Below the pieces are notes generated by a model. It saw only the letters and a list, made by a program, of their open reading frames with translations, was not told the DNA's origin and made no database searches. Position numbers and translations under genes: made by a program. From NCBI GenBank assembly GCA_011388675.1, contig DROW01000204.1, forward strand, positions 1-58,483: a stretch of DNA of 58,483 nt, read 5' to 3'. Shown here one piece after another: positions 12,465-28,999 of this stretch. Every line of letters begins with the position of its first letter. The first letter of the stretch is position 1. Source of the stretch: Chloroflexota bacterium. GTDB taxonomy: Bacteria > Chloroflexota > Anaerolineae > B4-G1 > DUEL01.

Positions 12465-12506
12465 CGTCTTCTCCCCCCCGGCGATCCCGTGTGGTCCGGT
12501 CGGCCC

Positions 12507-13577: not shown

Positions 13578-13648
13578 CTCGCACCTCCTTCGGAATCGTG
13601 GCAGAAAACCGAGCCCGCAAGCGGCATTGGAAACCCCGCGTCGCTTCC

Positions 13649-13764: not shown

Positions 13765-14994
13765 CTACAGGTCCGCCGCCTGGCGCAGGATCTGCTCGAT
13801 CCGTTGTGCCGCGGCCTGTAGCGAATAGCGCTCCTGCACGGCCCGATAGCCAGCCTCCCCCATCCTCGCCAGACGTTCCGGCTGCTCCTTCAGTTGCCGC
13901 AGGGCATCCGCCAGCGCCGCAGGGTTCTCCGGCTCCACGAAGACCCCTGCCCCGACCTGCTCCAGCAAGTGGCGCGCCTCCCCGTCCACCGTGATGAGGG
14001 TGGGCGTGCGGCAGGCCCAGGCGTCGAACATCTTGGTGGGGAGCGCACCCCGGAAGAGGTCCAGACGGCGCAAGGGAACCAGCGCCACGTCGGCCATCGA
14101 GAGATAGGGGGCCATCCGCTCCAGCGGTTGTCCGGGCAGTAGGCGCAGATTGTCCAGGCTGTACTGCTCCTTCAGCGCCAGCAGGGCCGCTTTGCGCGGC
14201 CCCTCCCCCACGAAGAGGAACTGGATGTCCGGGTCGTCTCTCAGCAGGCGGGCCGCCTCGACGACTGTCTCCAGGCCCTGGGCAATGCCGTGGATGCCGC
14301 CGTACAGGACCACGAACCGCCCCTCCAGCCCCAGTTGGGCCCGCAGGCGCGCACCTTCCTCCGGTGCCGGGCGGAAGATGGCTGTGTTGGAGCCGTTTGG
14401 GACCAGCGCCAGTTTACTCTCCGCCACGCCGCGCGCCCGCAGCCGGTCGTAGATGCCACGGGTCACGGCGATCACCCGTCGCGCCCGGTGGTAGCAGCGC
14501 ATCTCGAACCACTCGGCGAGGCGGATAAAATACGGGTTCCTGAGTTCCCCCAGCACCACCGCCGACTCCGGCCACAGGTCCTGCACCTCCATCACGAAGG
14601 GAACTCGCCGCACCGTGCTGACGACCCAACCGGCGATGGCGACGAACAGGGGAGGGGAGTTGGCAAAGATGGCGTCTACCTTTCCCCTCACCAGCAAGCC
14701 GGCGACGATGGCACCCAGCATATAACTGAGGTAAAAGGCCATGCGCGTCCGAAAGGTCTTCACCGGCGACGTTTTGACCCATAGGTGCAACACATCCACG
14801 CCATCGCGGGTCTCGCGCACCCACAGTTTACGCCGGTAGCCAGGCTGCACGATCCCCGAGGGATGGTTCGGGACTTCGGTCAGCACGGTGACACGGTGCC
14901 CCGCCTCCGCCAGCGTTCGGGCGACGGTCATCGCCCGCACCTGCACCGCGCCCGCCTCCGGGGGGAAGTATTGGCTCAGATGCAGGATCCTCAT
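13765..14994 (-). CDS. GT4-family glycosyltransferase (WbuB-like)
   Basis: MRILHLSQYFPPEAGAVQVRAMTVARTLAEAGHRVTVLT... with GT-B architecture. ATG 14994 overlaps the wecB TGA (ATGA). Confidence 0.8.
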   Translation of the reverse strand: MRILHLSQYFPPEAGAVQVRAMTVARTLAEAGHRVTVLTEVPNHPSGIVQPGYRRKLWVRETRDGVDVLHLWVKTSPVKTFRTRMAFYLSYMLGAIVAGLLVRGKVDAIFANSPPLFVAIAGWVVSTVRRVPFVMEVQDLWPESAVVLGELRNPYFIRLAEWFEMRCYHRARRVIAVTRGIYDRLRARGVAESKLALVPNGSNTAIFRPAPEEGARLRAQLGLEGRFVVLYGGIHGIAQGLETVVEAARLLRDDPDIQFLFVGEGPRKAALLALKEQYSLDNLRLLPGQPLERMAPYLSMADVALVPLRRLDLFRGALPTKMFDAWACRTPTLITVDGEARHLLEQVGAGVFVEPENPAALADALRQLKEQPERLARMGEAGYRAVQERYSLQAAAQRIEQILRQAADL

Positions 14995-16049
14995 ACGCGG
15001 GCCTCCAGGATGCGGACAATGGCCTGGCTGGTCTTGCCATCGCCGTAGAGGGGAGGGTGATCCTCCGGAGGGCGGAAGGTCCGCACCGCCTCGACGATCC
15101 GATCCGTGTGTGCGCCGACCAGTTTGTTCCATCCCACCTCGACCGTCTCCACCCACTCGGTCTGCTCGCGCAGGGTGATGCAAGGCGTACCCAGGCAGTA
15201 GGCCTCCTTCTGGATGCCACCGGAGTCGGTGAGGATGAGACGGGCGTGTTTCTCCAGCACCAGCATATCGAAGTAACTCTGCGGCTCGACCACCCGCACA
15301 TACGGCGTCGGACGCCAGCCCACTTCGTTCAGGCGGTTGCGGGTACGCGGGTGGACAGGGAAGAGAACCGGCTCGCGCAACCGATTGACGGCCTCCAGAA
15401 TGGCCTCCAGGTTCTCACGAATATCGGTGTTCTCGGCGCGGTGGATGGTCAGGAGAAGATAGCCCTCCGGCGATAACCCTAACCGCGTCAAGACGTCCGA
15501 CTGCGCTTCGGCCAGTGGCAGGTTGTACAGGATGGCCTCGTACATCACGTCCCCTACCAGGTGTACCCCCTCGGTAATCCCCTCTGCGGCCAGATTCTCG
15601 ACGGCGGTGGAAGTGGGGCAGAAGAGGAGGTCGGAGACGTGGTCGACGACCACGCGGTTGATCTCTTCCGGCATCCAGCGGTTGAAACTCCGCAGGCCGG
15701 CCTCGATGTGCCCGACAGGGATGTGCAGTTTCGCCGCAGCCAGCGCGCCCGCCAGCGTAGAGTTGGTGTCCCCACGGACCAGCACCCAGTCCGGTTTTTC
15801 TTTTAGCATCACCTCTTCCAACCGTGCCAGCATCTGACCGGTCTGCCAGCCGTGCGGCCCGGAGCCGACTCCCAGGTTGTAATCGGGCGGAGGCAGCCCC
15901 AGTTGCTCGAAGAAGACGGCCGACATCTCATAATCGTAGTGCTGGCCGGTATGGACGAGTACCTCGCGGTGGCGAGGGCGGAGCGCCCGACTGACGGGGG
16001 CAGCCTGGATGAATTCCGGCCGCGTTCCGACGATAGAGACAATCTTCAT
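14991..16049 (-). CDS. wecB: UDP-N-acetylglucosamine 2-epimerase (non-hydrolysing)
   Basis: MKIVSIVGTRPEFIQAAPV...HTGQHYDYEMS...GDTNSTLAGALAAAKLHIPVGHIEAGLRS...HPRT. Confidence 0.9.
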   Translation of the reverse strand: MKIVSIVGTRPEFIQAAPVSRALRPRHREVLVHTGQHYDYEMSAVFFEQLGLPPPDYNLGVGSGPHGWQTGQMLARLEEVMLKEKPDWVLVRGDTNSTLAGALAAAKLHIPVGHIEAGLRSFNRWMPEEINRVVVDHVSDLLFCPTSTAVENLAAEGITEGVHLVGDVMYEAILYNLPLAEAQSDVLTRLGLSPEGYLLLTIHRAENTDIRENLEAILEAVNRLREPVLFPVHPRTRNRLNEVGWRPTPYVRVVEPQSYFDMLVLEKHARLILTDSGGIQKEAYCLGTPCITLREQTEWVETVEVGWNKLVGAHTDRIVEAVRTFRPPEDHPPLYGDGKTSQAIVRILEARV

Positions 16050-16115
16050 TAGGACCTCGCTTTCGGGCAGGATTGGCAACCCGCGAGACGAAAGCCTCCC
16101 AGTGTTCCCAGGAGG

Positions 16116-16144
16116 ACTTTACCAAAACTCATGTCGTTCGTCAA
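16116..16144 (-). promoter_or_regulatory. sigma70-like promoter for wecB-GT4 (TTGACG-17-TAAAGT with TGg)
   Basis: The minus strand reads CTTGACGAACGACATGAGTTTTGGTAAAGT. It lies ~60 nt upstream of ATG 16049. Confidence 0.45.
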
Positions 16145-16351
16145 GCCCCTGTAGGTGGGGGGTTTCGAAGTGGAAGGCAAGAGACCGGCACTTTCAGCCT
16201 CCTCAGGGGCAATCGCGGGGCGAGGTTCGGACAAGAATACAGACACCCCGATCCGTCCTGCCACACACCGGCAGGGGCTGACGGGGAACCGGTCCGGCAT
16301 CGGCGCTTCGGGCCGCTGCCCCCTCGGAGGAGGATTCGGCCGTCGGTGGGT

Positions 16352-17317
16352 TCAGATCGGCGGCAGGACCCCTACCGCCTGCAGCACACGCCGTCCTGAT
16401 TGCAGAATGAGATACTTCCCCGCCAGTGCGGCATACCTTGCCCGCTCGGACGGGGACATCGGGCCCAGATCAGCCAGGCCGTAGCCCAACTCGACCAACA
16501 ACGGCCCCGCCACACGCTGTACCAGCCTGAGATCGGCGGGGGACATCTCCCGCCGCCAGCGGCCGACCCGGCCGGGATTCGGCGGCTGGCGGACCGGGTC
16601 GTGGAAGTCGCCGGGCCGGATGCGCTTCCGGGCCAGGCGATGGTGCTGGGCCATCTCGGGCAGGTACGGCTCGTTCAGGAACGCGCAGATGGCCCGCAGT
16701 TCCTTCTCCGGATCCAGCACCAGGTCCTCGTAGCGCAGTTCGTGGTAGAGGCGCGGCCCCAGCCGCGCCCCGGCCGCGCGGGCCTGTCGGATGCGGCGGA
16801 CCCAGGTACGGGCGGCGAAGTAAACGTCTATATGGAATTCCCTCCGCCCCCACTTCTCCAACATCGAAAGCGCCACATCCCGCCCGTCCCGAATGATGTG
16901 GATGAACTGGGCCTCGGGAAATATCCGGTGGATCAGATCGACGTAACTGGTATAGATCGGTGTCTTATCCCCCCACCGCACAGCCCCATACTGGCGCGCG
17001 TACATCCGGTAGAGGGTTTCCAGGAACCCCGCCGGCGTTGGGGCTGGCATCTCGTGGAAGAAACGAGCGGGGTCCGGTGGCTCCCCCTGCCACTCCTTCA
17101 CGAATCGGTAGCGGGTGAAGATGATGTGCAGGATCTTCCGCACACGCGATTCGTTCAGCGGAGCGAGGGGGGCGCGACCAAAGAAGCGGGGGATGAAATC
17201 GGACTCGGGGGGGATGTAGATACGGGGGCTGCTGCTGAGCATGTAGCGCAGCAGGGTCGTCCCCGAGCGGTGAACACCGATGATGAAGATGGGATTGCTC
17301 GAACCGGTCTCTCTCAC
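16352..17317 (-). CDS. PAPS-dependent sulfotransferase family protein
   Basis: FIIGVHRSGTTLL (5'-PSB) and IIRDGRDVALSM (3'-PB). GTG 17317 overlaps the upstream TGA (GTGA). The longer track ORF to 17608 is rejected. Confidence 0.75.
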   Translation of the reverse strand: MRETGSSNPIFIIGVHRSGTTLLRYMLSSSPRIYIPPESDFIPRFFGRAPLAPLNESRVRKILHIIFTRYRFVKEWQGEPPDPARFFHEMPAPTPAGFLETLYRMYARQYGAVRWGDKTPIYTSYVDLIHRIFPEAQFIHIIRDGRDVALSMLEKWGRREFHIDVYFAARTWVRRIRQARAAGARLGPRLYHELRYEDLVLDPEKELRAICAFLNEPYLPEMAQHHRLARKRIRPGDFHDPVRQPPNPGRVGRWRREMSPADLRLVQRVAGPLLVELGYGLADLGPMSPSERARYAALAGKYLILQSGRRVLQAVGVLPPI

Positions 17318-18333
17318 GGCCCTTCCTCTTCCAGGGGATATCCGAGAGCACGGATCAGATCCCCGAGAATTTCCTGAACCTGCCGCTTCTCCTCTGGATT
17401 GAACTCCCGCTTCCATCGCCCGCTGTGGGAACGGGAGAGATCGATCTGGAGCATCCTCTCGTGGAAGGGGATTTCCGCGAACAGACAGATCTCCTGGAGG
17501 ACCTCCTTCGGCTCCCGCACGAACCGCTCCAGGCTGACCTCGTAGAGGCTGTGCGGTGGAAGGGAGGAGCGGATCTCGAACCAGCGGCTCATCATCGACC
17601 GGTACCACAGGGCCCCCTGAACCTTGTCACGCGGGCTCCATCGCTGTCGACTGAAGGAAGCGACAACGTCTCTCGGATCGCGGTAGATGTGAACGATGCG
17701 AGCCTGGGGGAGGATCTCCAGGATCTCCCGGGCCAAGAGGACGTTCCACGTGTTGTCCTCCACAAAAAACGCTTTCCCCGTCTCTTTGAGGAGATCCCCT
17801 ATGACATTGTGGATGAATTTCCTCAAAATAGGAGCCAACTCCTCTCTGGAGCGAGGAGGGGAATGGTAGATGCGGGGGTGGAGGGTGTATCCCTCCGTGC
17901 CCACCCAGCAGGCGGGGAAGGAGAACGCGATGAGTTCGGACATCAGGGTATCGACGTGATGCTCAAACCGGGGCAGATGGCGATTCAACTCCCACCCGTG
18001 GTAGGCCCTTGGTGAGAGGAGGCGTCCTCTGGGGTCGAACCATTGAATCAGGCGGCCGGCGAGGCGGTGATACCACGGCTCTCGGGCAAGGGTCCTCAGA
18101 AACCGCTCCAGCCGCTTCAGGCGACGGTCCGCGATGTAAGGGGACCAGACGGCGGTGAAGCCGGCGTAGAAATCGACGATGCCGTCGGGGTCGATGATGA
18201 AACGATACTCGAAGGGAAGGCTGGCGGCTTGTGGGTGAAGGGCCAACGTCTCCTTCAAAATGCTTGTCCCGCTCCGTCCCGTTCCTCCCACCAGAATGAT
18301 CTTCACCATCGTCCCCCCTATGGAATCACCCAT
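17314..18333 (-). CDS. PAPS-dependent sulfotransferase family protein
   Basis: ILVGGTGRSGTSIL and IYRDPRDVVASF. The start is ATG 18333 or 18309 (MVKIILVGG). Confidence 0.75.
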   Translation of the reverse strand: MGDSIGGTMVKIILVGGTGRSGTSILKETLALHPQAASLPFEYRFIIDPDGIVDFYAGFTAVWSPYIADRRLKRLERFLRTLAREPWYHRLAGRLIQWFDPRGRLLSPRAYHGWELNRHLPRFEHHVDTLMSELIAFSFPACWVGTEGYTLHPRIYHSPPRSREELAPILRKFIHNVIGDLLKETGKAFFVEDNTWNVLLAREILEILPQARIVHIYRDPRDVVASFSRQRWSPRDKVQGALWYRSMMSRWFEIRSSLPPHSLYEVSLERFVREPKEVLQEICLFAEIPFHERMLQIDLSRSHSGRWKREFNPEEKRQVQEILGDLIRALGYPLEEEGP

Positions 18334-18959
18334 CGGACCACGTGGAACGCCTCCGCGTAGTCCACTCCTGCCTGGGCGCCCCGCACGCGGGCGAGGCCCC
18401 GGATCAGGTCCTCACGCCAGTACTTCCGGTGCCGCTGCGAACGGTAGTGGCGGAGCGCTCTCAATTTCTCCTCAAGATGGCGCTCCTCCAGGTGGACGAA
18501 AGCGGAGGCGGTGAAGGTGAGGTTGTTCCAGGGGAGTTCGTATCCCAGAATGCTGACATGCTTGAAGGCCCGTATCCCCTCCTGGCACACGATCTGGTGA
18601 TCCTGGTGCACGTCCGTAGGGGCGGGAAGGAGAACCAGAGACGGCTGCAATTCCCTCCGTATTTGTACCAGATACTCCAGGATTTCCTGTCGGTACTGAG
18701 GGAAGTGGCGGACGGGATAGCGAAGGATCGTCAGATGGTCGATAGGAATGTTGAGGGAACCACAGGCCGCCCGCAACTCGGTGACCAGGATGTCGCGGGG
18801 GAAGCCTTCCGGCACCGATTCCTCACAAATGGAGAAGGCGACGTAATAAACCTCTGCCCCCCTCTCGATAAGTTTGACCAGGGTTCCTCCGCATCCCAGT
18901 TCCCCGTCGTCCGGATGGGCCGCCAAGACGAGGACGCGCTCGTTGTGCATTTTCATCAT
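18318..18959 (-). CDS. PIG-L/LmbE-family N-acetylglucosaminyl deacetylase
   Basis: VLVLAAHPDDGELGCGG and TDVHQDHQ. The start overlaps the upstream GT4 stop (ATGA). Confidence 0.8.
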   Translation of the reverse strand: MMKMHNERVLVLAAHPDDGELGCGGTLVKLIERGAEVYYVAFSICEESVPEGFPRDILVTELRAACGSLNIPIDHLTILRYPVRHFPQYRQEILEYLVQIRRELQPSLVLLPAPTDVHQDHQIVCQEGIRAFKHVSILGYELPWNNLTFTASAFVHLEERHLEEKLRALRHYRSQRHRKYWREDLIRGLARVRGAQAGVDYAEAFHVVRWVIP

Positions 18960-20077
18960 CGGGACAACACCTCTTCGTAGAGCCCTACCAGTTTCCGGCT
19001 TTCCTGCTCCCAGTTATACTTGTCACGGATCGCCTGCCGGGCGTTCCGCCCCATCACGCGACGGGCGTCGGGGCGGTTCAGAAGGTCGTCGATGGCCTCG
19101 GCAATCCGACGGGGCGAGGTGGGGTCCACCGTGACACCGCACTCGTTGCCCTCGACGATCTCCCTCCATAGATCGAAGTTCGAGGCAATCACCGGCAGGC
19201 CCGCTGCCATATACTCGAACAGTTTGTTGGGCAGAGCGAACTGGTACCCGTGCACCGGCTGATTGCACACCAGCCCCACGGCCGCTTCGTTCAGGTATCG
19301 ATACATTTCCCTGTACGGGACCTTCCCCAGATACTCCACCCGTTCGTACCCGGGCAACTCGCGGGCGGCTTCTGCCAGCCGGGGGGAGGACATACTGCCC
19401 AGGAGGACCAATCTGGCCTGCGGGACCGTCACATAACCCAGCGCCTGTACGATTTGGTAAACTCCCCGGTAAACGGTCCATCCCCCGGTGTAAATAAGGG
19501 TGTAGTTCCCTTCGTATCGCCGACGGTCCTCCGAGACCCACTGCGTAACGGAGAGCGAGGGGTAATTCCTCACCACCCGGGTCTTATCTGGGGGAAACCG
19601 TCGCGCGATCGTCTCTGTAGCCGCCACGAAGCCGTCAAGTCGTCTACAGGCCCTTTTCTCCAGCCTCTCGACCAGCCGCGCGGCCCCCCCTCGCAGAGAG
19701 CGGGGGAGCCATTCCTTGGCGGCAAACAACCGCGGATAGTCCTCGTGCACATCGTAAATCACGGGAGCCGAGGTGCTCCGCTTTAGCAAGAGCCCCACCG
19801 GGAGCAGTTCCGGGTCGTGAAAGTGATACAGGTCTCCCCGCAGGCGGTGTACGATCCACCCAGCGACCCAGGCCCCCCACCCCATCCGCACGAGCCGATT
19901 GGGGAACCGAGGCAGAGGGACGATCTCCACCCCGTCCACCACTTCCCGCCGGGTGTGGGGCGCGACCAGGGCTACCCGGTATCCTTCCCGGACCAGGGTG
20001 CGACACTCTTTCTGAAAGATGCGGGTATCGAAAGGGCGATGAACCACGGTGAAGTGAACAACTTTAGCCCCAGCCAC
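18956..20077 (-). CDS. GT4-family glycosyltransferase
   Basis: GT-B layout with the C-domain motif ALPNKLFEYMAAGLPVIASN. GTG start. Confidence 0.75.
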   Translation of the reverse strand: MAGAKVVHFTVVHRPFDTRIFQKECRTLVREGYRVALVAPHTRREVVDGVEIVPLPRFPNRLVRMGWGAWVAGWIVHRLRGDLYHFHDPELLPVGLLLKRSTSAPVIYDVHEDYPRLFAAKEWLPRSLRGGAARLVERLEKRACRRLDGFVAATETIARRFPPDKTRVVRNYPSLSVTQWVSEDRRRYEGNYTLIYTGGWTVYRGVYQIVQALGYVTVPQARLVLLGSMSSPRLAEAARELPGYERVEYLGKVPYREMYRYLNEAAVGLVCNQPVHGYQFALPNKLFEYMAAGLPVIASNFDLWREIVEGNECGVTVDPTSPRRIAEAIDDLLNRPDARRVMGRNARQAIRDKYNWEQESRKLVGLYEEVLSR

Positions 20078-20095
20078 GTGGACACTCCCGTTCCG

Positions 20096-21244
20096 TTACG
20101 TTTCCCATCGGCGGTACAGATCGAGCAGTTTCGCGCTTTCCCGTTCCCACGTGAAGATCGCGGCCGCGCGGAGGGCGTTGGCGCGAAGACGGGCGTACCC
20201 CTCGGGATCGCCCAGCAGGCGACGCAGCGCGTCGGCCACCGCCTGCGGGTCCTCCGGATCCACGACCACTCCCACCTGGTACGTCCGGATCACCCTGGCG
20301 ATCTCAGGCAGATCGCTCCCTATCACCGGGATGCCGGCCTGAAGGTACTCGAAGATCTTGTTGGGCAGGGCGAAGTAGTAACTACGACACGTGTTCTGGA
20401 TCAGTGAAAGGCCGACGTCGGCGGAGGCGGTGTAGGAGGGCAGTTCCGATAGGGGGACTTTGCCCGGCAGGTACATACGGGGCCACTCGCCGGAAGCGGC
20501 CCGTGCGCGGTATTCCTCCAGGGCAGGCCCATCGCCCAGGATGACCCCCGCCACGTCCGGCAACTGCCGCACAGCGGCGGCCATTGTCTCCAACCCCCGC
20601 CCCGGTGCCACCAGACCCTGGTAGAGCGCGATCCTCTGGTGAACGGGGATGGACAAGGTTCTCCTCAGCCGGTCGGAAGAAGCAGGTCGTGCCGTCCTCT
20701 CCGGACAGTTCATCACCACCACCGGCCTAGGTATGCCGTACAATCGGACCAGTTCGTCGGCGATGCCGTCGCACACGGTGATGACAGCGTCGGCACGACG
20801 GATAAAAAGCCGCTCCGGCAACGCCCATAGGCGGCGGTAGATACCCGATAGGCGGGTGCCGCCGAAGTTGCGCCCCGTCTCCAACTCGTGCGCGTCGTAC
20901 ACCAAACGCGCGCCGGTGCGACGAGCCGCAAGCCAGCCGAGGGGAAGGGTGTTGGCGTCGTGCGCGTGGACGACGTGGGGGGCAGCACGGATCAGGAGAG
21001 ACAGGGCGCGGAGGGTGAACTCCAGATACTTCACCAGCGGCGCGATCCCTCCACCCCGCCAGCGACGGCTATGGAGAGGGACACGCTGGATTCGGTATCC
21101 GGACCGCTCCTCCTCACGGGGCAGCCCCTCTTTCCACAGCGCGTACACCACCACACGGTGCCCGGCTGCAGCCAACGTTTTGGCCTCCTTGTGGACGCGG
21201 GCGTCGTGGGTGAAGTTGGAGAGAAGGAGCATTGAGATCTTCAT
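20096..21244 (-). CDS. GT4-family glycosyltransferase
   Basis: MKISMLLLSNFTHDARVHKEAKTLAAAGHRV...ALPNKIFEYLQAGIPVIGSD. ATG 21244 overlaps the upstream stop. Confidence 0.75.
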   Translation of the reverse strand: MKISMLLLSNFTHDARVHKEAKTLAAAGHRVVVYALWKEGLPREEERSGYRIQRVPLHSRRWRGGGIAPLVKYLEFTLRALSLLIRAAPHVVHAHDANTLPLGWLAARRTGARLVYDAHELETGRNFGGTRLSGIYRRLWALPERLFIRRADAVITVCDGIADELVRLYGIPRPVVVMNCPERTARPASSDRLRRTLSIPVHQRIALYQGLVAPGRGLETMAAAVRQLPDVAGVILGDGPALEEYRARAASGEWPRMYLPGKVPLSELPSYTASADVGLSLIQNTCRSYYFALPNKIFEYLQAGIPVIGSDLPEIARVIRTYQVGVVVDPEDPQAVADALRRLLGDPEGYARLRANALRAAAIFTWERESAKLLDLYRRWET

Positions 21245-22668
21245 ATAGACTCCCTCTGAAGGCGGCTCAGTTCGGCCAGAACCTCCTGGCAGATCCTCGC
21301 CCACGGACGCTCAATCTCCCGCAACAAAGTGGGGTGCCATACCAGCGAGAACACCCCTTCCACCTGGCGACAGCGACGGGCCAGTGAAAGGATGCGCTCT
21401 TTTCCTTCCGCTGGACTCATCCTACGGTACCCCTTCAACGTCGCATCCATCACGATGAGCGGCCGCTCGACGATGTTCAGCACCCGATTTTGCAGACAAT
21501 CGAAGGGGTGAAAAGGGTGACAGGTCCCGCAGCGAAACCCCTCGTGATCCGCATATCCCATCGTCGCATCGTAGGTCAGACCGACCCTTTCCCCATCCCG
21601 CCACGTACCCGGCACCCGAAAGCGGAGGTAGTGCTGCCGCCCTCCATACTTATCGGTGCCCAGCACCGCGTCCAGCCGCGCCTTCTCATCCCGCAGGCGC
21701 GCCGGATCGTTCAACGTGTAGTATCCGGCGTGGAGACCGATCTCAAACCCCCGCTGCCGGAGACGTTCGATAAGCCTTCGGACCAGCGGCGAGGCGGGGT
21801 CGTACCCGCTGTCGAACGGGGAGGGATCGGACGCCTTGAAGTAGAAAGCCGCGTCCAGCCCGTAGTGGGCGGCCAGTTGGGCCAGGTATTCAATTCCCCG
21901 TATCTCACTTGTTTGGGCGGGACGGAAAGCCTGCATCACCAGTTCGCGCGCCGTCCCCCACGCCCGCCAAAGGCTGCGGCGCTTGAACAGGTCCCCACCC
22001 AACACGCGGATTCCCTGCCCCCAGGTAGGAAACGGACGAACGTGGTCCACGTCCGAACCGAGATGGACTCTGAACCGGTGACGTCGGGGGCGATGGCGGG
22101 GCAGGAGGGCCATCAACCAGGCCCGCAAGACAAGGGCGTACTCGTCCACGATGGGACGGTCCAGAAAACCCTGCTTGTAGGCCACACTGGCGGTGGCGGG
22201 GAAGCGGTCGTGCTCGTCACGAACGGCGACGACGGTCTCTTCCCAGCGGGAGAGCATAAAGAAGGTGGCGGCGATGATGTCGGCGTGGAAGACCAGGAGA
22301 CCATCGGGGTGGCGTTCGGCGAAGGGAAGGCCCCCATCTTCACACCCCGCCCCCCAGAACAGCACCGGCAGCGGATCGGTCAGGGGGGAAGGGACGCCGG
22401 GCGGCAGGACCCGGCTCAGCGGCAAAATCTGCAACGAACCAGAGGGACGATGTAACAGGGATTCGAACGCATCGAGGGCGCAGGGGGTCACCACCACGCC
22501 GCCGAAGTCCGTGGGGGCACGGGTGGGATCGCCGTACCACAGAGGTATGTCAGGTTCGAAACCGGCACGCTGAAGGACCTGCTCCCAGGCGTAGGCGGTT
22601 GCCTCCGGCGTCAGGGGAGGCGCGAGGTTATCGGTCTGGATGCTTACGGGCACAGATCCCTCCGGCAT
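21241..22668 (-). CDS. polysaccharide-deacetylase-like protein (475 aa) with an N-terminal domain of unknown function
   Basis: VHLGSDVDHV...GLHAGYYT...MGYADHEGFRCGTCHPFHPF resembles the large deacetylase-family proteins found in EPS loci. The assignment is from memory of the family only. Confidence 0.45.
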   Translation of the reverse strand: MPEGSVPVSIQTDNLAPPLTPEATAYAWEQVLQRAGFEPDIPLWYGDPTRAPTDFGGVVVTPCALDAFESLLHRPSGSLQILPLSRVLPPGVPSPLTDPLPVLFWGAGCEDGGLPFAERHPDGLLVFHADIIAATFFMLSRWEETVVAVRDEHDRFPATASVAYKQGFLDRPIVDEYALVLRAWLMALLPRHRPRRHRFRVHLGSDVDHVRPFPTWGQGIRVLGGDLFKRRSLWRAWGTARELVMQAFRPAQTSEIRGIEYLAQLAAHYGLDAAFYFKASDPSPFDSGYDPASPLVRRLIERLRQRGFEIGLHAGYYTLNDPARLRDEKARLDAVLGTDKYGGRQHYLRFRVPGTWRDGERVGLTYDATMGYADHEGFRCGTCHPFHPFDCLQNRVLNIVERPLIVMDATLKGYRRMSPAEGKERILSLARRCRQVEGVFSLVWHPTLLREIERPWARICQEVLAELSRLQRESI

Positions 22669-22674
22669 ACCGCC

Positions 22675-23583
22675 TTATCCATCCTGTGCAAGGGAATATC
22701 CCAATCGAGAGGCCGTCTCAGCGGTGAAACGGGCCAGGTTGGCCCGCAGGTCCGCCTGATCGGCCTCGGAGAAGGGAGGGGCGCTCTTCTTTTGCGCGTT
22801 CAACCTCTTCCGGAGGATCGAGCGCACCCTTCTCATCGACGGCATCGGTGCCCCGGCGAACGCATAGAGGCGCTTCAGCGTCTCATAGTCTCCAGCGAAG
22901 ATCTCCTCCGCCTTGAGGCAAAGGGCCTGTTCCGGCGGAAGGGTCGACAGGAACTCCAATATCCAGCGGTTCGTGGCGTCCCACAGCCACAGGTTCTTCT
23001 GAACGACCGAGTAGGTTGCCCATCGATCGGCGTCCTCCGTGCCGGGGCGCGGGGTGATCCGGGTCGGGTCGCGGTGGTGGCCTGCGTACCAGCGCCGCCG
23101 CACTCCGGAGCGGACGACCGCGACCGGGTGGCGGGTGAGGTGGATGAAGCGGGCGTTGGGAAGGAGACGCAGGATGGCCGGGGCGAGGAAGGTGAGGTGA
23201 GGGCTAGTTTCGGCGTAGCCGCGTCCACAGGAGAGAGCGTACTCTAGGAGTTCCTGACGGGCGGTGGCGAAGGCCGCGGTCAGGATCTCATCGGCGGGTG
23301 AAGAATCGCCGTACAGATAAGCCAGCCGCGAGAGCGCGAACAACTTGGGACGCGGTTCGTGATACGCAAAGAGATTGCCGCTCAGCCCCAACAGGGCAGC
23401 CAGCGTCTTCGTCCCGGTCCGCCCAGTGGAGAGGGCGAAAATGCAAGGGTGCTCCTCATCAAAGGTGCTCAACCGCTCACGCCCCGACAACCGGTAGCGC
23501 AAGCGATGGTAGACCTGACGCGGACTGAGGTCGGGCAAGACGCGCAAGCGAGAGCCGATTGAGCGCACTAATCTCTGAGGCAC
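22675..23583 (-). CDS. sulfotransferase family protein
   Basis: FALSTGRTGTKTLA (P-loop-like PSB), FIHLTRHPVAVVRS and a conserved W-rich core. Confidence 0.6.
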   Translation of the reverse strand: MPQRLVRSIGSRLRVLPDLSPRQVYHRLRYRLSGRERLSTFDEEHPCIFALSTGRTGTKTLAALLGLSGNLFAYHEPRPKLFALSRLAYLYGDSSPADEILTAAFATARQELLEYALSCGRGYAETSPHLTFLAPAILRLLPNARFIHLTRHPVAVVRSGVRRRWYAGHHRDPTRITPRPGTEDADRWATYSVVQKNLWLWDATNRWILEFLSTLPPEQALCLKAEEIFAGDYETLKRLYAFAGAPMPSMRRVRSILRKRLNAQKKSAPPFSEADQADLRANLARFTAETASRLGYSLAQDG

Positions 23584-24722
23584 TGCTCCTCCTCCAGGTA
23601 ACGGAGCAAGATAGCACGCATACGTTTGGCGAAGATCTTTTCATCAAAGTTGGCTACAACGTGTTCCTGCAGCCGTCTTACCAGCGAGCAACGTTCGGAT
23701 TCACCCATCCTTTCCAGTTCGGAAAGGACAGCCGGCACCTCTTGGAAGGAGCGGTACCGCAGCGCTGCTTCGATAACGATCTCCCGCTGTCCACCTGAAT
23801 CGTGGACAACGGGCAGACATCCAGCAGCGATAGCCTGCACAGTGGTGATGCCAAACGGCTCATTGATGGTGGTATGCAGAAAATAGCGAGCACTTTGCAA
23901 CAACGGAAGCATTTCCGCGAAAGGCAAGTCCGGGCGCAAGTGCACATTCCTTACATCATGCTCTTCGATATAGCGGCGACAATTCTGGTAATATGGATTG
24001 TTGCCCGCGAAACCGACGATGTGGAAAGGGATATGTGGCACCCGTTCCGCTATTTGGATTTGTTCTAATTGACGTTTATCTGGAGTGAAACGCCCAAGCG
24101 TGATAACCGAGAGGGGACGAGCGTGAGGACTAGCACGGAAGCGGTCGATCTCCACGGGGGGATAGACTACCGGTAAATCGCTGGGGAGATCATAGACCGC
24201 ACGTAAGGCCTCGCGGGTAAACCGAGTCATACACACAATAGTGTGCTTCGGGTCCGGCTTACTGAGATGGTATAAGGGACGGAGAATCAAACGTTGAAGT
24301 CTGTGCCGTGACCAGAGGGGGAGCCGCTTCCCCGGTAGATGGATGCTAACATCTGGAGTGATCAGGCGGGCCTTCCGTGGAAAGAACATATATGTCAGCA
24401 CATTCTGGCTTCTCGGCAGAAATAACAGGCTATTCCCTGTATTGATGAGGAGTGCGTATGACCGACCATACCACCAAAGGGAGATGTTAAACAAAACCGT
24501 CAGCGTGTCAACAGGAAGGCGCGGGACACCAGGCAGCAATCGAAAATGGGCTCGTATAGGGCGACCATACCATTCTACAACCTGCGCCGGGTCGAACCTA
24601 ATGCGCGCCGCCAGGATGTCGGGCACAATCCCGGCCTCGTTGAGAACCTCAACGATCCCTAGGATGACACGAAGGCGACCTCCCAAGATGACGGTTGGTT
24701 GGCAGATGGCAACTCTGTTCAT
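23568..24722 (-). CDS. GT4-family glycosyltransferase (in low-GC island)
   Basis: TINEPFGITTVQAIAAGCLPVVHDSGG (EX7E-type C-domain). It is visibly more AT-rich than its flanks. Confidence 0.7.
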   Translation of the reverse strand: MNRVAICQPTVILGGRLRVILGIVEVLNEAGIVPDILAARIRFDPAQVVEWYGRPIRAHFRLLPGVPRLPVDTLTVLFNISLWWYGRSYALLINTGNSLLFLPRSQNVLTYMFFPRKARLITPDVSIHLPGKRLPLWSRHRLQRLILRPLYHLSKPDPKHTIVCMTRFTREALRAVYDLPSDLPVVYPPVEIDRFRASPHARPLSVITLGRFTPDKRQLEQIQIAERVPHIPFHIVGFAGNNPYYQNCRRYIEEHDVRNVHLRPDLPFAEMLPLLQSARYFLHTTINEPFGITTVQAIAAGCLPVVHDSGGQREIVIEAALRYRSFQEVPAVLSELERMGESERCSLVRRLQEHVVANFDEKIFAKRMRAILLRYLEEEQCLRD

Positions 24723-25441
24723 ACAACCTTTTTTATAAAACGATAGCCTATCCTATTTCCGAACCATGGAAGGAGTCTCGATAATGGATTGAGTACTCGA
24801 TCGAACAGATAGGCAATTTGCGCACTTCCCCGGAACCGCGGGCGAAATCCCCAATAATAAATCGCCCCTCCCGTAGTTGCTTCGATTTCCATCTCTTTTG
24901 TTTCCATCACCCATCGCTTTAACTCAATTGGGCTCAACCGCCGCATCGGTGGCCGGTAACGGTCCCAGATGCGATTCAGCCAGCTCCATGCATTGTCAAC
25001 TGTGATGAGCATTTTTCCCCCTGGTTTGGTAACGCGGACCATTTCTCTCACCCAAGCTCGCTGCAAAGCGCGGTCAGGCAAGTGTTCAATGGCTGAAAAG
25101 CTCGTGACCACATCGAAGGAATTGTCAGGAAAAGCCAACCTCGTTGCATCACACTGCACGAAAGTTGTCTTATCAGGCAACAGGGTAGATGGAATAGGGC
25201 GTAAGTCAACAAGATATATACGCCTTATCCCCTTCATTTTACTCAAGATAAGGGCATCCAAGGGTATATGACACCCCACATCCAATGCAATACCTGAGAA
25301 ATCATGCCATAAATTCCAATCGATCTGTTTCATCTCTAGATAACGATGAATATAACGTGTATTGGTCGGCTTTAGACCAGGACGTTTTGCAAGAAGCTCG
25401 GACAATTGTTGGTATAGAGGTGACCCTTTTTCAATTCGCAT
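24719..25441 (-). CDS. class I SAM-dependent methyltransferase
   Basis: IALDVGCH... and FDVVTSFSAIEHLPD...TKPGGKMLI (Methyltransf_11-like). Confidence 0.7.
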   Translation of the reverse strand: MRIEKGSPLYQQLSELLAKRPGLKPTNTRYIHRYLEMKQIDWNLWHDFSGIALDVGCHIPLDALILSKMKGIRRIYLVDLRPIPSTLLPDKTTFVQCDATRLAFPDNSFDVVTSFSAIEHLPDRALQRAWVREMVRVTKPGGKMLITVDNAWSWLNRIWDRYRPPMRRLSPIELKRWVMETKEMEIEATTGGAIYYWGFRPRFRGSAQIAYLFDRVLNPLSRLLPWFGNRIGYRFIKKVV

Positions 25442-25460
25442 AGCCCACCTTCTCCAAACC

Positions 25461-26123
25461 TCATTGATGCACAGTCCACTCGAAAGACCCTTCCCACAAC
25501 ATACGTGTATAAGTGAACCGCCTTAGGACAAGCCATAGACGGACTAGGGTTCGGCGAACAGCAACTAGCAAGTAATGCCAAGGCTTACGACAACCATAGC
25601 TAAACGCAAGAACATTTTTCCCCGCCAACTGGGCAGGGACATTATAGAAATAAAAGCTGAAAAATAGGATTTGATACCATCTGGGGTTTTGTTGGCTCGA
25701 CTTTTTCTCAAAAACTAACATGTTGTTACGAAGAGAAACAAACCATTTATGGAATGGTTGGGGACGCAGTTTCTCAGCCAGTTTACTGGGGGTTTCCAAA
25801 TATCCCCTAGAAGCAATGCGGTTTAATTCGGAACAAAAACTTTCAACATTCTCAATATGCTCCGCCACATGTGAACATATAACAAAATCGAATGCGCGAT
25901 CTTTAAAAGGTAACGCACACGCATCTGCTATGACAAAAGCTTTGTCTGGAGGCAACACGATGGTTTGACCTGAACGCTCTCTGTCGTCGTTCAGAAAGCG
26001 GTCTACCAAGACATTCGCACGTGGGTGTGGATGATGACCACTTCCGATGTCAAGCACCCGCCAATCGCTACTGTATCCGACTCGAGTATGTGAATTTCCC
26101 GTGGGAAAATACTCCATCGTCAT
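25461..26123 (-). CDS. class I SAM-dependent methyltransferase
   Basis: RVLDIGSGHHP, ALPFKDRAFDFVICSHVAEHI and ASRGYLETP. Confidence 0.7.
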   Translation of the reverse strand: MTMEYFPTGNSHTRVGYSSDWRVLDIGSGHHPHPRANVLVDRFLNDDRERSGQTIVLPPDKAFVIADACALPFKDRAFDFVICSHVAEHIENVESFCSELNRIASRGYLETPSKLAEKLRPQPFHKWFVSLRNNMLVFEKKSSQQNPRWYQILFFSFYFYNVPAQLAGKNVLAFSYGCRKPWHYLLVAVRRTLVRLWLVLRRFTYTRMLWEGSFEWTVHQ

Positions 26124-26144
26124 AGTGGTATACCCTTTCAGGTT

Positions 26145-27710
26145 TCATACCTTCTTTGAGCGATATTCCTGTTTTGAGAGCAGCGAACGACGCACCTCGG
26201 ATACCATCTCCAGCAACCGGCGGCGCTCCAGCGCCAGTAGAACCGAGCCGTACACAACAGTAAAGGACATCACTTTTGCCAGACCCGATGTCCAACCAGA
26301 GGCAGTCACGGCGGACAGGCTACCCATGCCGTACCCCAGCAACCCCCCTACCGCCAACGCCATCCCTGGAGCGGCAAACAGCCGCCCCACCGAGCAATCC
26401 ACGTACGCCCTTGCCATCCAGAACAGTAGGACGATGCCCACTACCAGCATCAAGTCCACCGCCAAGGCCACGCCGGCGATGCCAAAGGGCAGACCCAGCA
26501 GGAACAGCCCTCCTACCATCACCGCCAGTTGAACCGCCCGTGCCCAGACGACCTGCTCCGGCCTCCCCATCGCAATGAACAGGTTGGCAATCGTCACTTT
26601 CATCGGATCGAACAGGGTGAAAACCAGCATCAGTCGGAAAGCGGTCAGCATAGGGAGCCATTTATCTCCCAACAGTAAACGGACAAACTCCGGAGCGATC
26701 AGCCACAACACTCCCGCAAACAGGAAACCGCTTCGAACCAGAAAAGCGTTCACCCGAAAAAAGGCCTGGGAGAGCCGCCGCCGGTCGCCCTTCAACTCGG
26801 CGTACATCCCGGTGGTAACCTGATTGACGGGTGCCGCCAGCACTCCTCGAGGATAGGTGGCGAAAGTGTACGCGCGGGAGTAGAAGCCCAGCGGCGATTT
26901 CCCCAGAAAAACCCCCGTCCACAGATCGTCCAGGCGATCCAGCGCGCGCAGCAACACCGCTCCTACCAGATTACGACTGCCAAAGCGAAGGAAGTAGCGC
27001 ACCACCGGAGGGGACCAGGCCAGGCGGGGTCGCCATACCGGTCGCCAGATGTACAGAGCGACGGTGTGCAACAAGAACGTGACCAGGTCCGTCGCCAGCA
27101 GGGCCCACAACGTTGCCCCACGCCAAGCCAATCCCAGCGCGACGGCAGTGGTGAGTAGAGCGTTGAGCATCTGGATGAGGGCCAGTCGTTGATGCATCAC
27201 CCGGCGCATCAGGATCAGGCGCGGGGTCTGGCTCAACTCCGTCCCACCCGTCGCAAGGACCAGCACCAGCAGTGCCAGCCGCGTCTCGCCAGCGGTAAAG
27301 GAGAGGGCTCCACCTATTAGGAGGACCGTCCAAAGAAGGGTGAAGAGGAGTTTCAACGTGAAATGGACCGCTGCTGCCTGCGCTTCGTCTTCTGTTTCGG
27401 GGGCGCGATGCAGGAAGGCTCCCCACATTCCGAAGCCGGGCAGCATCTTCGTCAGCCCGATCACCGACCCGGCCAGGGCATAGACGCCGAACACCTCCAC
27501 CGGCAGCAAGCGGGCCAGCATCACCGAGCGGACGAAGAGGATGAGGATTCGGCTCGTGTTGGCGACGACGTTCCACGAGATCGAGACAACGCTGCGACGC
27601 GCGAGATCCGAGCCTTCGTCCAACCTCCCCCCTCCGACCGGCCTTGCTCGCCCGGTGTGTCCGTTCAGCCGTCCCTCCGCGTCCCAACCCCTATCCTTCG
27701 GCACACCCAC
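26145..27710 (-). CDS. Wzx-like polysaccharide flippase (MOP/Polysacc_synt family)
   Basis: About 12-14 hydrophobic segments with flippase-like loops (ARLLPVEVFGVYALA.., FGSRNLVGAVLLR..). The start is uncertain: 27710 overlaps the upstream gene by 46 nt. Confidence 0.7.
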   Translation of the reverse strand: MGVPKDRGWDAEGRLNGHTGRARPVGGGRLDEGSDLARRSVVSISWNVVANTSRILILFVRSVMLARLLPVEVFGVYALAGSVIGLTKMLPGFGMWGAFLHRAPETEDEAQAAAVHFTLKLLFTLLWTVLLIGGALSFTAGETRLALLVLVLATGGTELSQTPRLILMRRVMHQRLALIQMLNALLTTAVALGLAWRGATLWALLATDLVTFLLHTVALYIWRPVWRPRLAWSPPVVRYFLRFGSRNLVGAVLLRALDRLDDLWTGVFLGKSPLGFYSRAYTFATYPRGVLAAPVNQVTTGMYAELKGDRRRLSQAFFRVNAFLVRSGFLFAGVLWLIAPEFVRLLLGDKWLPMLTAFRLMLVFTLFDPMKVTIANLFIAMGRPEQVVWARAVQLAVMVGGLFLLGLPFGIAGVALAVDLMLVVGIVLLFWMARAYVDCSVGRLFAAPGMALAVGGLLGYGMGSLSAVTASGWTSGLAKVMSFTVVYGSVLLALERRRLLEMVSEVRRSLLSKQEYRSKKV

Positions 27711-28999
27711 CCTCTCGCCCGCACCCCTTCCACCGGAAACACCTCTCGTCCGTCCACCAGCACCGGCCGACGGACCACCCGGCGCAACCGCTCCAGATCC
27801 ATCTCCCGGTACTCATCGTGTGCCACCATCACCACCACCGCGTCGCATCCTCGCACCCGCTCCTCCAGGTCCCCCCGGTACGCGGGCACCCATGGGTCGT
27901 GGATCACCACCTCAGCCCCCATCTCCCGCAGCCGCCGCACCAGCACCTCCGAGGGGCTGTTCCGGGTGTCGTCGGTGTTCTCCCGGTAGGCGTACCCCAG
28001 CACAGCCACCCGCGATCCCTCGATCCCCACGCCCGCCTCTCGCAGCCCGTCCACCACCAATTCGGCCACGTGGAGCGGCATCCCGTCGTTGACCGCCCGC
28101 GCCGCCGGGATCAGCCGAGGCGTGAATCTCTCGCCCGCGTTGGCGATGAGCAACCAGGGGTCCTTGGGAATGCAGTGCCCCCCTACCCCTGCGCCCGGCA
28201 GGTGCATATCCCGCCCCGGCGACTTGTTCACCAACTCCCGCACCCGCCACACGTCCGCCCCCATCGTCTCGCACAACAGCGCCACCTCGTTGGCGAAAGC
28301 GATCTGCACGTCCCGGTAGGCGTTCTCCGCCGTCTTCACCAACTCCGCCGTCAGGCAGTCGGTGGGGTCCAGGTCCCCTTCCACGATGTGCCGGTACAGG
28401 GCCACCGCCACCTCTGCGGCCTCAAGGGGCATTCCCCCCACCACGCGGGACATATGCCGCAGGTTGTACAGCAGTCGCCCCGGCATCACCCGCTCCGGGC
28501 AGTGGACCAAATAGAGATCTTCCCCAACCCGCAGGCCCGACTTCTCCTCCAGCAGCGGTCGGACCAGTCGGTCCATCGTCCCCGGGGCGAGGGTGGATTC
28601 GACGATGACCATCGTGTTGGGGGAGAGGTGCGCCGCCAGCGAGGTCAGCGCGCCGCGCAGGGCCTCGTAGCGCGGCTTGTGCGTCTCCGGGTCCACCGGC
28701 GTCTCCACCACCACGAGGACCACCTGCGCGTCCCGGCAGACGGCGTAGTCGGTGGTCGTCGTGAGCCGCTTCTCGGCCATCACGCGGGCGACCAATTCGG
28801 GCAGGCCCGGCTCCTCCCCCTCAATGGGGCACTCCCCGCGCCCGATCCGGCGCACCTTCTCCTCGTCCCGATCCAGCCCCCACACCCGAAACCCCACCTC
28901 GGCGAACCGACAGGCCACGGGGAGCCCCACGTACCCCAGGCCGAGGACGACGATCTTCGCCGATTTCCGCTCGATTGCACGCAGGAGACGTTCTTTCAT
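27665..28999 (-). CDS. UDP-N-acetyl-hexosamine 6-dehydrogenase (WbpA/WecC-like nucleotide-sugar dehydrogenase)
   Basis: KIVVLGLGYVGLPVA Rossmann fold, GGHCIPKDP catalytic Cys and YRENTDDTRNSP. Confidence 0.8.
   Translation of the reverse strand: MKERLLRAIERKSAKIVVLGLGYVGLPVACRFAEVGFRVWGLDRDEEKVRRIGRGECPIEGEEPGLPELVARVMAEKRLTTTTDYAVCRDAQVVLVVVETPVDPETHKPRYEALRGALTSLAAHLSPNTMVIVESTLAPGTMDRLVRPLLEEKSGLRVGEDLYLVHCPERVMPGRLLYNLRHMSRVVGGMPLEAAEVAVALYRHIVEGDLDPTDCLTAELVKTAENAYRDVQIAFANEVALLCETMGADVWRVRELVNKSPGRDMHLPGAGVGGHCIPKDPWLLIANAGERFTPRLIPAARAVNDGMPLHVAELVVDGLREAGVGIEGSRVAVLGYAYRENTDDTRNSPSEVLVRRLREMGAEVVIHDPWVPAYRGDLEERVRGCDAVVVMVAHDEYREMDLERLRRVVRRPVLVDGREVFPVEGVRARGWVCRRIGVGTRRDG

Follow-up and report, generated by a model that had tools for sequence, protein, structure and literature searches.

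In the synthesis of mycothiol and of bacillithiol, a third enzyme acts on the amine that has been freed, and in nodA-nodB of the Nod-factor pathway the deacetylase gene adjoins the gene of the enzyme that uses the freed amine. We know of no prokaryotic enzyme that N-sulfates a sugar, and it is for this reason that the locus described here matters. Contig DROW01000204.1 of a Chloroflexota metagenome-assembled genome (MAG), whose full 58,483 bp are referred to below as the window, carries a Wbp/Vim-type sulfated-glycan locus built on two widespread cassettes, each of which pairs a sugar deacetylase with a sulfotransferase of the type that uses 3'-phosphoadenosine-5'-phosphosulfate (PAPS). Our analysis marks both cassettes as candidates for making heparin-like N-sulfated sugars in prokaryotes. 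According to a published proposal, VimE of the Wbp/Vim pathway exposes the amine at position 2 of di-N-acetylglucuronic acid, and VimA then adds serine or glycine to it (PMC7468200). The Wzx/Wzy-type xss cluster for synechan in Synechocystis holds several sulfotransferase genes, its product carries O-sulfated neutral hexoses and no deacetylases are described for it (PMC8205485). Nitrous-acid assays suggest that N-sulfated hexosamine polymers occur in bacterial extracellular polymeric substances (EPS), with no enzyme known; by this assay the EPS of Pontiella was reported as 75-80% N-sulfated, PF13469 sulfotransferases lie in a glycosyltransferase-rich, putative sulfated-GAG-like cluster, and the same paper cites reports of sulfated glycosaminoglycan (GAG)-like polymers in granular-sludge and anammox-granule matrices (PMC7356697). 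Microbial production of heparin suffers from the lack of a deacetylase/N-sulfotransferase that functions in bacterial hosts, a gap for which artificial fusions are under development (PMC13353177). Nothing on a cluster of PIG-L and sulfotransferase, on DUF7033, or on sulfated diacetamido sugars was found in the literature searched.

Enzymes of the two cassettes

All five focal genes (three sulfotransferases and two deacetylases) lie tightly packed on the minus strand, within one long Wzx-type glycan operon that runs from ~33.4 kb down to 13.8 kb of the window. Together with the GT4 glycosyltransferase genes beside them, they are as follows:

23568..24722, minus strand: GT4_b glycosyltransferase, first gene of the GT4_b-ST3-DUF7033 cassette (Glycos_transf_1 1.9e-14)
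22675..23583, minus strand: ST3, PAPS-type sulfotransferase, partner of DUF7033 (Sulfotransfer_3 55 bits)
21241..22668, minus strand: DUF7033/VimE-like metal-dependent sugar de-N-acetylase, 475 aa (DUF7033 99 bits, 1.7e-28; CE4-like model)
20096..21244, minus strand: GT4_c glycosyltransferase (Pfam GT4 domains), in the position that VimF holds after vimE in P. gingivalis
18956..20077, minus strand: GT4_d glycosyltransferase, first gene of the GT4-PIG-L-ST2 triad (Pfam GT4 domains; weak NCBIfam similarity to GlcNAc-PG synthase, MshA and BshA)
18318..18959, minus strand: PIG-L/LmbE-family (CE14) N-acetylglucosamine (GlcNAc) de-N-acetylase (Pfam PIG-L 69.5 bits, 5.1e-19)
17314..18333, minus strand: ST2, PAPS-type sulfotransferase, partner of PIG-L (Sulfotransfer_3 82 bits, 1.1e-22)
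16352..17317, minus strand: ST1, PAPS-type sulfotransferase (Sulfotransfer_3 145 bits, 4.4e-42)

The proteins of the contig were deposited as HHS98079-HHS98091, where the annotations read "sulfotransferase" and "PIG-L family deacetylase", and "hypothetical protein" for the 475-aa protein. ST1, ST2 and ST3 score 145.2, 81.8 and 54.9 bits against Sulfotransfer_3 (PF13469) and thus all pass its Pfam cut-off of 27 bits, while their scores against Sulfotransfer_1 are far below these values. The initial annotation had called PAPS-sulfotransferases at these three positions from short signature motifs, and both the calls and the motifs, all of which are present in the translations, hold. Specifically, ST1 carries GVHRSGTT in its 5'-phosphosulfate-binding (5'-PSB) loop and RDGRDVALS in its 3'-phosphate-binding (3'-PB) motif, and it shows weak similarity to NoeE in NCBIfam. 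The motifs of ST2 are GGTGRSGT and RDPRDVVAS, with GGxGRxGT, E34 and RDPRDVVAS invariant across 27 homologues, and those of ST3 are STGRTGT and TRHPVAVVRS, with STGRxGT and RDPxxVVRSG conserved across 9 orthologues. The ST2 family comprises 528 matches at E <= 1e-5 and the ST3 family 219 cluster representatives at E<=1e-30. Structure models, a check that the initial annotation had proposed, gave the ST2 protein a sulfotransferase fold (AlphaFold, pLDDT 90.2) with 42 matches in the PDB at E<=1e-3, those listed being PAP/PAPS-binding sulfotransferases or their relatives. The best were tyrosylprotein sulfotransferases (TPSTs), the sulfotransferase (ST) domains of CurM and OLS, and mycobacterial Stf9 and Stf1, followed by 3-OST; NDST1/1NST held ranks 32-48. 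PDB sequence searches with ST1, ST2 and ST3 matched TPST and the CurM ST domain and never NDST.

Both deacetylases were also recognised correctly at the outset. PIG-L passes its Pfam model with 69.5 bits against a cut-off of 28.2, its nearest solved relatives are the CE14-type enzymes diacetylchitobiose deacetylase, TT1542 and BshB1, and in an alignment with diacetylchitobiose deacetylase its AHPDDGELG and VHQDH fall on the HPDD and HxDH motifs. The 475-aa protein, previously described as deacetylase-like, passes Pfam DUF7033, and its nearest NCBIfam model is VimE (185.8 bits, E 1e-54, over 351 residues, against an equivalog cut-off of 440). No solved relative of it was found by sequence; its AF2 model (pLDDT 91.5) best matches 3rxz (5e-8), 3s6o and insect chitin deacetylase, and by this model the protein has the CE4-like fold of polysaccharide/chitin deacetylases. 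NDST1 is a weak match to the same model (rank 16, E 9e-3, probability 0.72). Residues D206, D208, H313, H346 and H445 are invariant in 25 homologues and are candidate metal/catalytic residues; DUF7033 has >1,100 homologues in all. Neither transmembrane segments nor signal peptides were found in the three sulfotransferases or the two deacetylases, so all five proteins should act in the cytoplasm before Wzx flipping.

At the ST2/ST1 junction the sequence reads ccGTGAgag, the 4-nt overlap that had been reported. PIG-L and ST2 had been described as overlapping too, and the TAG stop of PIG-L does overlap an ATG at 18333, but, judged from the sequence, the more likely ST2 start is an alternative ATG at 18309, which lies 8 nt past the PIG-L stop and is preceded by a GGGGGG run, since homologues begin there; a 331-aa form of ST2 is called by two sources. 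The DUF7033 gene directly follows ST3, as had been noted, but the spacer between the TAA of the one and the ATG of the other is 6 nt and not 7. The start codon of ST1 is uncertain: its maximal open reading frame (ORF) extends to 17608, ~290 nt into ST2 (window 16352-17608), and the form beginning at GTG-17317 is absent from the protein collection, so that the deposited annotation must use another start.

Recurrence of the two cassettes across genomes

The genomic neighbourhood of ST2 was compared in 79 loci taken from GTDB species genomes, plus earlier look-ups; the count covers the 77 non-redundant ST2-family loci whose upstream sequence reached 500 bp or more. In 20 of these 77 loci, the gene immediately upstream of ST2, in the same orientation, is a PIG-L homologue (46-67% identical to that of the window). 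Adjacency follows ST2 identity to the window protein: PIG-L is adjacent in 7/7 loci at identities of at least 55%, in 9/27 at 40-55%, in 4/23 at 30-40% and in 0/20 below 30%. The identities of PIG-L and ST2 to the window proteins co-vary (r = 0.84, 21 pairs). In a neighbour-joining tree, every PIG-L-linked ST2 falls within one clade that holds Bacteria and Archaea, namely Chloroflexota (Anaerolineales), Bacteroidales, Lentisphaerae, Desulfobacterales, Nealsonbacteria (Candidate Phyla Radiation, CPR), Methanosarcinales and Nanobdellota. Because the PIG-L-linked members form one clade spanning them, PIG-L and ST2 travel as a pair across domains. The gene upstream of PIG-L in the 20 loci was a GT4 in 12, a DUF354 gene in 3 and a fused ATP-sulfurylase/APS kinase in 1. 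PAPS-synthesis genes flank the pair in two lineages: the fused ATP-sulfurylase/APS kinase lies directly upstream of PIG-L-ST2 in Nealsonbacteria (L014:4003-7380), and in Methanosarcinales (L026:8098-14600) the order is PIG-L-ST2-CysQ-CysN-CysC, with cysQ, cysN and cysC motifs downstream. Yunchengibacter salinarum YC-2023-2 (L047), which is cultured, carries PIG-L and ST2 as adjacent genes, and this makes the question of sulfation directly testable.

Other arrangements of the ST2 family were also observed. In Lentisphaerae (L002:5991-10993 and L003:887-5889) a five-gene module consists of UDP-sugar dehydrogenase, short-chain dehydrogenase, epimerase, PIG-L and ST2, and beside it lies a pgaABCD-like operon for poly-N-acetylglucosamine that includes regulators of the GGDEF and HD-GYP types. 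In 7 of 54 ST2-family loci without PIG-L, the gene directly before the ST2-like one encodes an ABC transporter ATPase of the Wzt type, Wzt_C domain included, and this suggests that sulfate marks the chain end of O-antigens exported by ABC transporters. A sister ST2 clade without PIG-L, found in Thermoplasmata (L041, L050, L053, L056), Balneolaceae, Roseovarius and others (L063, L064, L066 and L075 among the loci), comes directly after WbpA-like or WbpE-like genes and may sulfate 2,3-diamino sugars in archaeal and bacterial glycans.

For the ST3-DUF7033 pair, the gene immediately upstream of DUF7033 was scanned in 60 distinct, mostly metagenomic, loci. This neighbour was a VimA-like Acetyltransf_6/FemAB gene in 18/60 loci, a Sulfotransfer_3 gene in 10/60, a PHP gene (PHP + PHP_C) in 5/60, an Antibiotic_NAT (aminoglycoside-3-N-acetyltransferase-like) gene, a hexapeptide transferase and a flippase in 4/60 each, and an ATP-grasp gene in 3-5/60. 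About half of the upstream neighbours are thus amine-acylating enzymes, which fits de-N-acetylation followed by derivatisation of the amine. In 8 other loci (L084/L087, L098, L100, L114, L126, L128, L137 and L168) the gene immediately before DUF7033 is an orthologue of ST3 (47-72% identity), and no VimA-like or ATP-grasp gene was found in any of these 8; nor was one found in the window by tblastn with all the upstream-neighbour proteins, and ST3 fills that slot. We read the gene upstream of DUF7033 as encoding the group that is put on the freed amine; this carries the Wbp/Vim scheme of deacetylation and re-decoration well beyond Bacteroidota, and it would stand even with sulfate on oxygen. GT4_b is often the gene just before ST3 (orthologues of 46-67% identity in L084, L100, L128 and L168), preceded in turn by MT1 and Wzx, and GT4_c orthologues follow DUF7033 in L084 (74%), L105 (60%) and L010 (55%). 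ST1 orthologues (68-70%) follow the cassette in L010 and L087. As had been pointed out for the window, a deacetylase is paired with a sulfotransferase twice, and each pair proves to be a conserved, tightly packed unit in other genomes. A further variant was seen in L167:7478-11329, where a DUF7033 homologue (55-57%) in a full Wbp-like cluster is preceded by genes for a MaoC dehydratase, an HpcH/HpaI lyase and an aminoglycoside-N-acetyltransferase-like protein, and where the enzymes probably transfer an unusual acyl group, taken from a CoA derivative, to the freed amine.

The surrounding operon

The other genes of the operon, which is flanked by housekeeping genes (Pfam, other window ORFs), are:

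32641..33372, minus strand: GT2 glycosyltransferase, AglJ-like (polyprenyl-phosphate sugar transferase type), likely the first operon gene (Glycos_transf_2 1.7e-32; NCBIfam nearest AglJ, 126 bits, below cut-off)
31727..32650, minus strand: short-chain dehydrogenase/reductase (SDR) nucleotide-sugar epimerase/dehydratase (Pfam Epimerase 3.8e-73; NCBIfam nearest LegB, GalE and TviC, all below cut-off)
31091..31723, minus strand: hexapeptide-repeat sugar N-acetyltransferase, WbpD-like (Hexapep 1.1e-26; NCBIfam nearest NeuD/PglB/VioB subfamily, 106 bits against a cut-off of 160.8)
30024..31151, minus strand: DegT-type sugar aminotransferase, WbpE-like (DegT_DnrJ_EryC1 2.4e-136)
28996..30000, minus strand: Gfo/Idh/MocA sugar 3-dehydrogenase, WbpB-like (GFO_IDH_MocA 2.6e-31; NCBIfam nearest UDP-GlcNAc 3-dehydrogenase, 320 bits against a cut-off of 450)
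27665..28999, minus strand: UDP-N-acetylhexosamine 6-dehydrogenase, WbpA/WecC-like (three UDPG_MGDP_dh domains; passes TIGR03026 with 394 bits; nearest UDP-ManNAc dehydrogenase)
26145..27590, minus strand: Wzx/MOP-type flippase (Polysacc_synt_3 1.1e-41; ten hydrophobic segments)
24719..26123, minus strand: two methyltransferases dependent on S-adenosylmethionine (SAM) (Methyltransf_11; low-GC stretch)
14991..16049, minus strand: WecB/WbpI-like non-hydrolysing UDP-GlcNAc 2-epimerase (Epimerase_2 2e-109; passes NCBIfam wecB, 344 against 210 bits)
13765..14994, minus strand: WcaI-like GT4, last enzyme gene of the cluster (Pfam GT4 domains; NCBIfam nearest WcaI subfamily, 214 bits, below cut-off)

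By Pfam and NCBIfam, the Wbp-like set is complete in this one operon, with WbpA/B/E/D-type classes and the 2-epimerase (five enzyme classes). This Wbp/Vim-type diamino-sugar context was not recognised in the initial annotation. We infer the exact diacetamido sugar, because curated cut-offs are passed for just two models, those of the dehydrogenase subfamily and of wecB. GC content is 0.49 over 24000-26150, which covers the two methyltransferases and the start of GT4_b, versus 0.62-0.70 elsewhere. A homologue of MT1 (51-59% identity) occupies the same position in L084, L100 and L168, so the low-GC stretch is not a recent private insertion. ST1 and the WecB-like epimerase are separated by a 273-nt gap (16080-16351). 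On the minus strand, only in this gap does a promoter-like match (16144-16116) pair with a terminator-like one (16115-16095); the epimerase and the last GT4 may form a separate transcription unit. In scans of the operon for promoters and terminators, the match counts were no higher than in shuffled sequence. Orthologues of the WcaI-like GT4 (55-73%) come after the epimerase or after ST2 in Anaerolineales loci. Directly downstream of the operon, on the minus strand (9294-13670), four genes encode secreted proteins in which Pro/Thr-rich linkers are combined with cohesin, dockerin, LysM and CarboxypepD_reg domains; these proteins could be surface scaffolds that sit on the glycan or bear it as a decoration.

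Proposed pathway, alternatives and known systems

Going beyond the identities, folds, motifs, adjacency, solubility and linkage to PAPS genes in relatives reported above, we infer the substrates, the order of the steps and the site of sulfation as follows. In this Anaerolineae-type member of the Chloroflexota, the operon would direct the cytoplasmic, Wzx-dependent assembly of a sulfated, amino-sugar-rich surface glycan, for which the Wbp-like enzymes would make UDP-2,3-diacetamido-2,3-dideoxy-hexose or its uronic acid. Both cassettes would share one logic, in which an amine is exposed and then derivatised on cytoplasmic nucleotide- or lipid-linked intermediates. In the cassette GT4_b-ST3-DUF7033-GT4_c, the deacetylase would take off one N-acetyl group, which the analogy with VimE places at position 2 of the diacetamido sugar, after which ST3 would sulfate the deacetylated product. 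In the cassette GT4_d-PIG-L-ST2(-ST1), the GT4 would add a GlcNAc-type residue, PIG-L would de-N-acetylate it and ST2 would sulfate it. ST2 and/or ST3 would move the sulfate from PAPS to the freed amine, giving a residue like N-sulfoglucosamine (GlcNS) before the Wzx flip, and ST1 would add a further sulfate.

That each deacetylase and its sulfotransferase act on the same sugar, whether the sulfate ends on nitrogen or on oxygen, is well supported and probable. Since both pairings recur in many unrelated genomes, they are beyond chance. It is unlikely, by comparison, that the deacetylases and sulfotransferases modify different residues and that their adjacency reflects modular shuffling of the locus, although Nod factors provide a precedent, with NodB deacetylating one end and NodH O-sulfating the other. 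Glycan loci are indeed shuffled and the cassettes occur separately: in L084, ST3-DUF7033 is present and another sulfotransferase replaces PIG-L-ST2, and L010 reads GT4_b-DUF7033-GT4_c-GT4_d-PIG-L-ST2-ST1-ST1' without ST3, so the two cassettes are not interdependent. The gene upstream of DUF7033 also varies widely, even among homologues of >50% identity, and no fused deacetylase-sulfotransferase proteins were found, a concatenated PIG-L::ST2 (Rosetta-stone) query returning only proteins of ~330 aa among its top 120 matches. Shuffling leaves unaccounted for, however, the same-strand adjacency with overlapping or 6-8-nt junctions in 20/77 ST2 and 8 ST3 loci across phyla and domains, the co-variation of partner identities given above, and the existence of minimal modules such as PAPS synthase-PIG-L-ST2 (L014), GT4-PIG-L-ST2-cysQNC (L026) and MT-Wzx-GT4-ST3-DUF7033 (L168). 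Far less probable again is that at least one of the sulfotransferases, and ST1 in particular, uses protein tyrosines as acceptors in the manner of RaxST and animal TPSTs; the secreted cohesin/dockerin/LysM proteins that follow the operon would then be possible targets. The best solved relatives of ST1 are indeed TPSTs (E 3e-18) and its IRDGRDVALSM resembles the TPST 3'-PB motif, but the same PDB search also matches the CurM ST domain, and TPST is merely the best-studied Sulfotransfer_3 member. Moreover, ST1 orthologues lie within glycan operons, beside ST2 or other sulfotransferases (L010, L087), and a member of the ST3-like family is fused to a GT2 domain (GT2::ST3-like), which indicates sugar substrates for the ST3 family.

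Within the coupled scheme, N-sulfation by at least one cassette is our leading reading, which we hold tentatively. It is favoured because ST3 is positionally equivalent to the amine-acylating enzymes, because of the parallel with MshABC and BshABC, because the PIG-L-linked sulfotransferases form a single clade moving with PIG-L, and because a 2,3-diacetamido uronic acid has one free hydroxyl, that at C4. A bolder and still more tentative form of it is that the ST2-type and/or ST3-type proteins are the first prokaryotic amino-sugar N-sulfotransferases and, with their deacetylases, soluble cytoplasmic two-protein functional analogues of NDST, in cassettes spread by horizontal transfer; on precursors linked to a nucleotide or a lipid, they would produce residues that are GlcNS-like or that are 2-N-sulfo-diamino-uronic acids. 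The chief alternative, a real possibility to which we give lower credence, is that the cassettes are coupled but O-sulfating, so that a GlcN-type residue is recognised or co-decorated and a hydroxyl (e.g., 6-O, 3-O or 4-O) is esterified, while the amine stays free, as in a zwitterionic glycan, or is methylated by an operon methyltransferase, of which there are two that depend on SAM. Several observations speak for it and weigh against N-sulfation. By model and sequence, the sulfotransferases are nearest to O-sulfating enzymes (TPST, the CurM and OLS ST domains, Stf1/Stf9 and 3-OST), not to the ST domain of NDST, and the bacterial carbohydrate sulfotransferases characterised and named in a review, NodH, KpsS and Stf0, are all O-sulfating (PMC11625862). 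Many ST2-family members lack a nearby deacetylase: the genes upstream of the 54 homologues without PIG-L include GT4 (9), Wzt-type ABC ATPases (7), flippases (6), another sulfotransferase (6), UDP-sugar dehydrogenase (5) and DegT (4). A different deacetylase class in place of PIG-L was sought and is not among the 25 commonest Pfam families of these 54 upstream neighbours. As members outside the PIG-L clade lack an upstream deacetylase, the ST2 family as a whole needs none, and the sister clade linked to Wbp genes also has a WbpD-like acetyltransferase, which would cap the amine made by the transaminase. A different sulfotransferase subfamily lies just upstream of VimA-DUF7033 in L111, L112, L130, L133, L134 and L152 and of ATP-grasp-DUF7033 in L086, so sulfation and acyl-capping can coexist; these VimA-linked proteins were considered as ST3 orthologues, which would have counted against N-sulfation, and rejected as such, having no BLAST similarity to ST3 (E 0.4) and forming a separate subfamily, and in their triad the sulfate target could be a sugar hydroxyl or the added amino-acyl group. 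In L126 a hexapeptide transferase lies directly upstream of ST3. No PAPS-synthesis gene (sat, cysC, cysDN, cysQ) was found on this contig of the MAG by motif scan and by Pfam of the other ORFs, in agreement with the initial annotation. O-sulfation leaves unexplained, on the other hand, why ST3 sits in the amine-acylating slot only where those enzymes are absent and why one PIG-L-linked clade moves with PIG-L across domains, and it would have only the C4 hydroxyl available on a 2,3-diacetamido uronic acid. The choice between nitrogen and oxygen turns here on such arguments from gene position.

If N-sulfation is correct, the cassettes would offer small, soluble, bacteria-native enzymes for the N-deacetylation/N-sulfation step of heparin synthesis and a gene marker for producers of sulfated glycans in metagenomes, and they could be the genetic basis of the N-sulfated GAG-like polymers from Pontiella, sludge and anammox granules. 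Even if the sulfate is placed on oxygen, they represent two widespread deacetylase-sulfotransferase gene pairs that were not found described in the literature searched.

Compared with known systems, the window resembles the synechan and Pontiella loci in being a glycan cluster with several sulfotransferase genes, but conserved deacetylase-sulfotransferase pairs are not described in either paper (PMC8205485, PMC7356697). The Nod-factor pathway (NodB, NodA, NodH/NoeE, NodPQ) likewise combines a sugar deacetylase with Sulfotransfer_3-type sulfotransferases in one glycoconjugate pathway; there, however, the amine receives an acyl group and sulfation takes place on an oxygen of a different residue, and therefore the presence of both enzyme types in a pathway does not by itself imply N-sulfation. 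In the window, the deacetylases have no accompanying acyltransferase and the adjacent gene is the sulfotransferase. Chemistry like that of NDST, as initially proposed, is retained as far as the proposed coupled logic goes, that is, removal of a GlcNAc-type N-acetyl followed by sulfate transfer from PAPS, and the window sulfotransferases share the general PAPS-sulfotransferase fold and a Glu at the TPST/NST-type catalytic-base position. Homology to NDST is not retained: sequence and fold searches led us to reject a specific relationship for the sulfotransferases, and PIG-L belongs to a different family. The window proteins are separate, whereas NDST is fused; the window sulfotransferases are Sulfotransfer_3 proteins with an Arg in the 5'-PSB loop, whereas the NST domain is Sulfotransfer_1 with a Lys in the PSB loop; PIG-L has a CE14-type fold, and the DUF7033 model is a good match to CE4 deacetylases and a weak one to NDST1. 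Furthermore, the window enzymes are predicted to be cytoplasmic and to use a sugar that is linked to a nucleotide or a lipid and still awaits flipping, whereas NDST acts on a polymer in the Golgi.

The pathways of glycosylphosphatidylinositol (GPI; PIG-A/PIG-L), mycothiol (MshA/MshB/MshC) and bacillithiol (BshA/BshB/BshC) share with the second cassette a GT4 GlcNAc transferase, a PIG-L protein and a third enzyme, and the window PIG-L is nearest to BshB1, TT1542 and diacetylchitobiose deacetylase. They differ in that their third enzyme is a cysteine ligase and that of the window a PAPS sulfotransferase, in that all window matches fall below equivalog cut-offs, and in that the window setting is a Wzx polysaccharide operon and not thiol or GPI synthesis. 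With the Wbp/Vim pathway of P. gingivalis and Tannerella forsythia (WbpA/B/E/D, VimE, VimA, VimF), the window differs in that no VimA-like aminoacyl transferase is present and ST3 takes its place, that the VimE match reaches 186 bits against the 440-bit equivalog cut-off, and that the host belongs to the Chloroflexota, with no type IX secretion context found in the window. The two share the Wbp-like set, a VimE-related DUF7033 protein with a GT4 directly downstream, and a scheme in which the 2-N-acetyl is removed and another group is put on the amine (PMC7468200). The closest described pathway is therefore Wbp/Vim, with a sulfotransferase in the place of VimA, and the GT4/PIG-L pathways come next.

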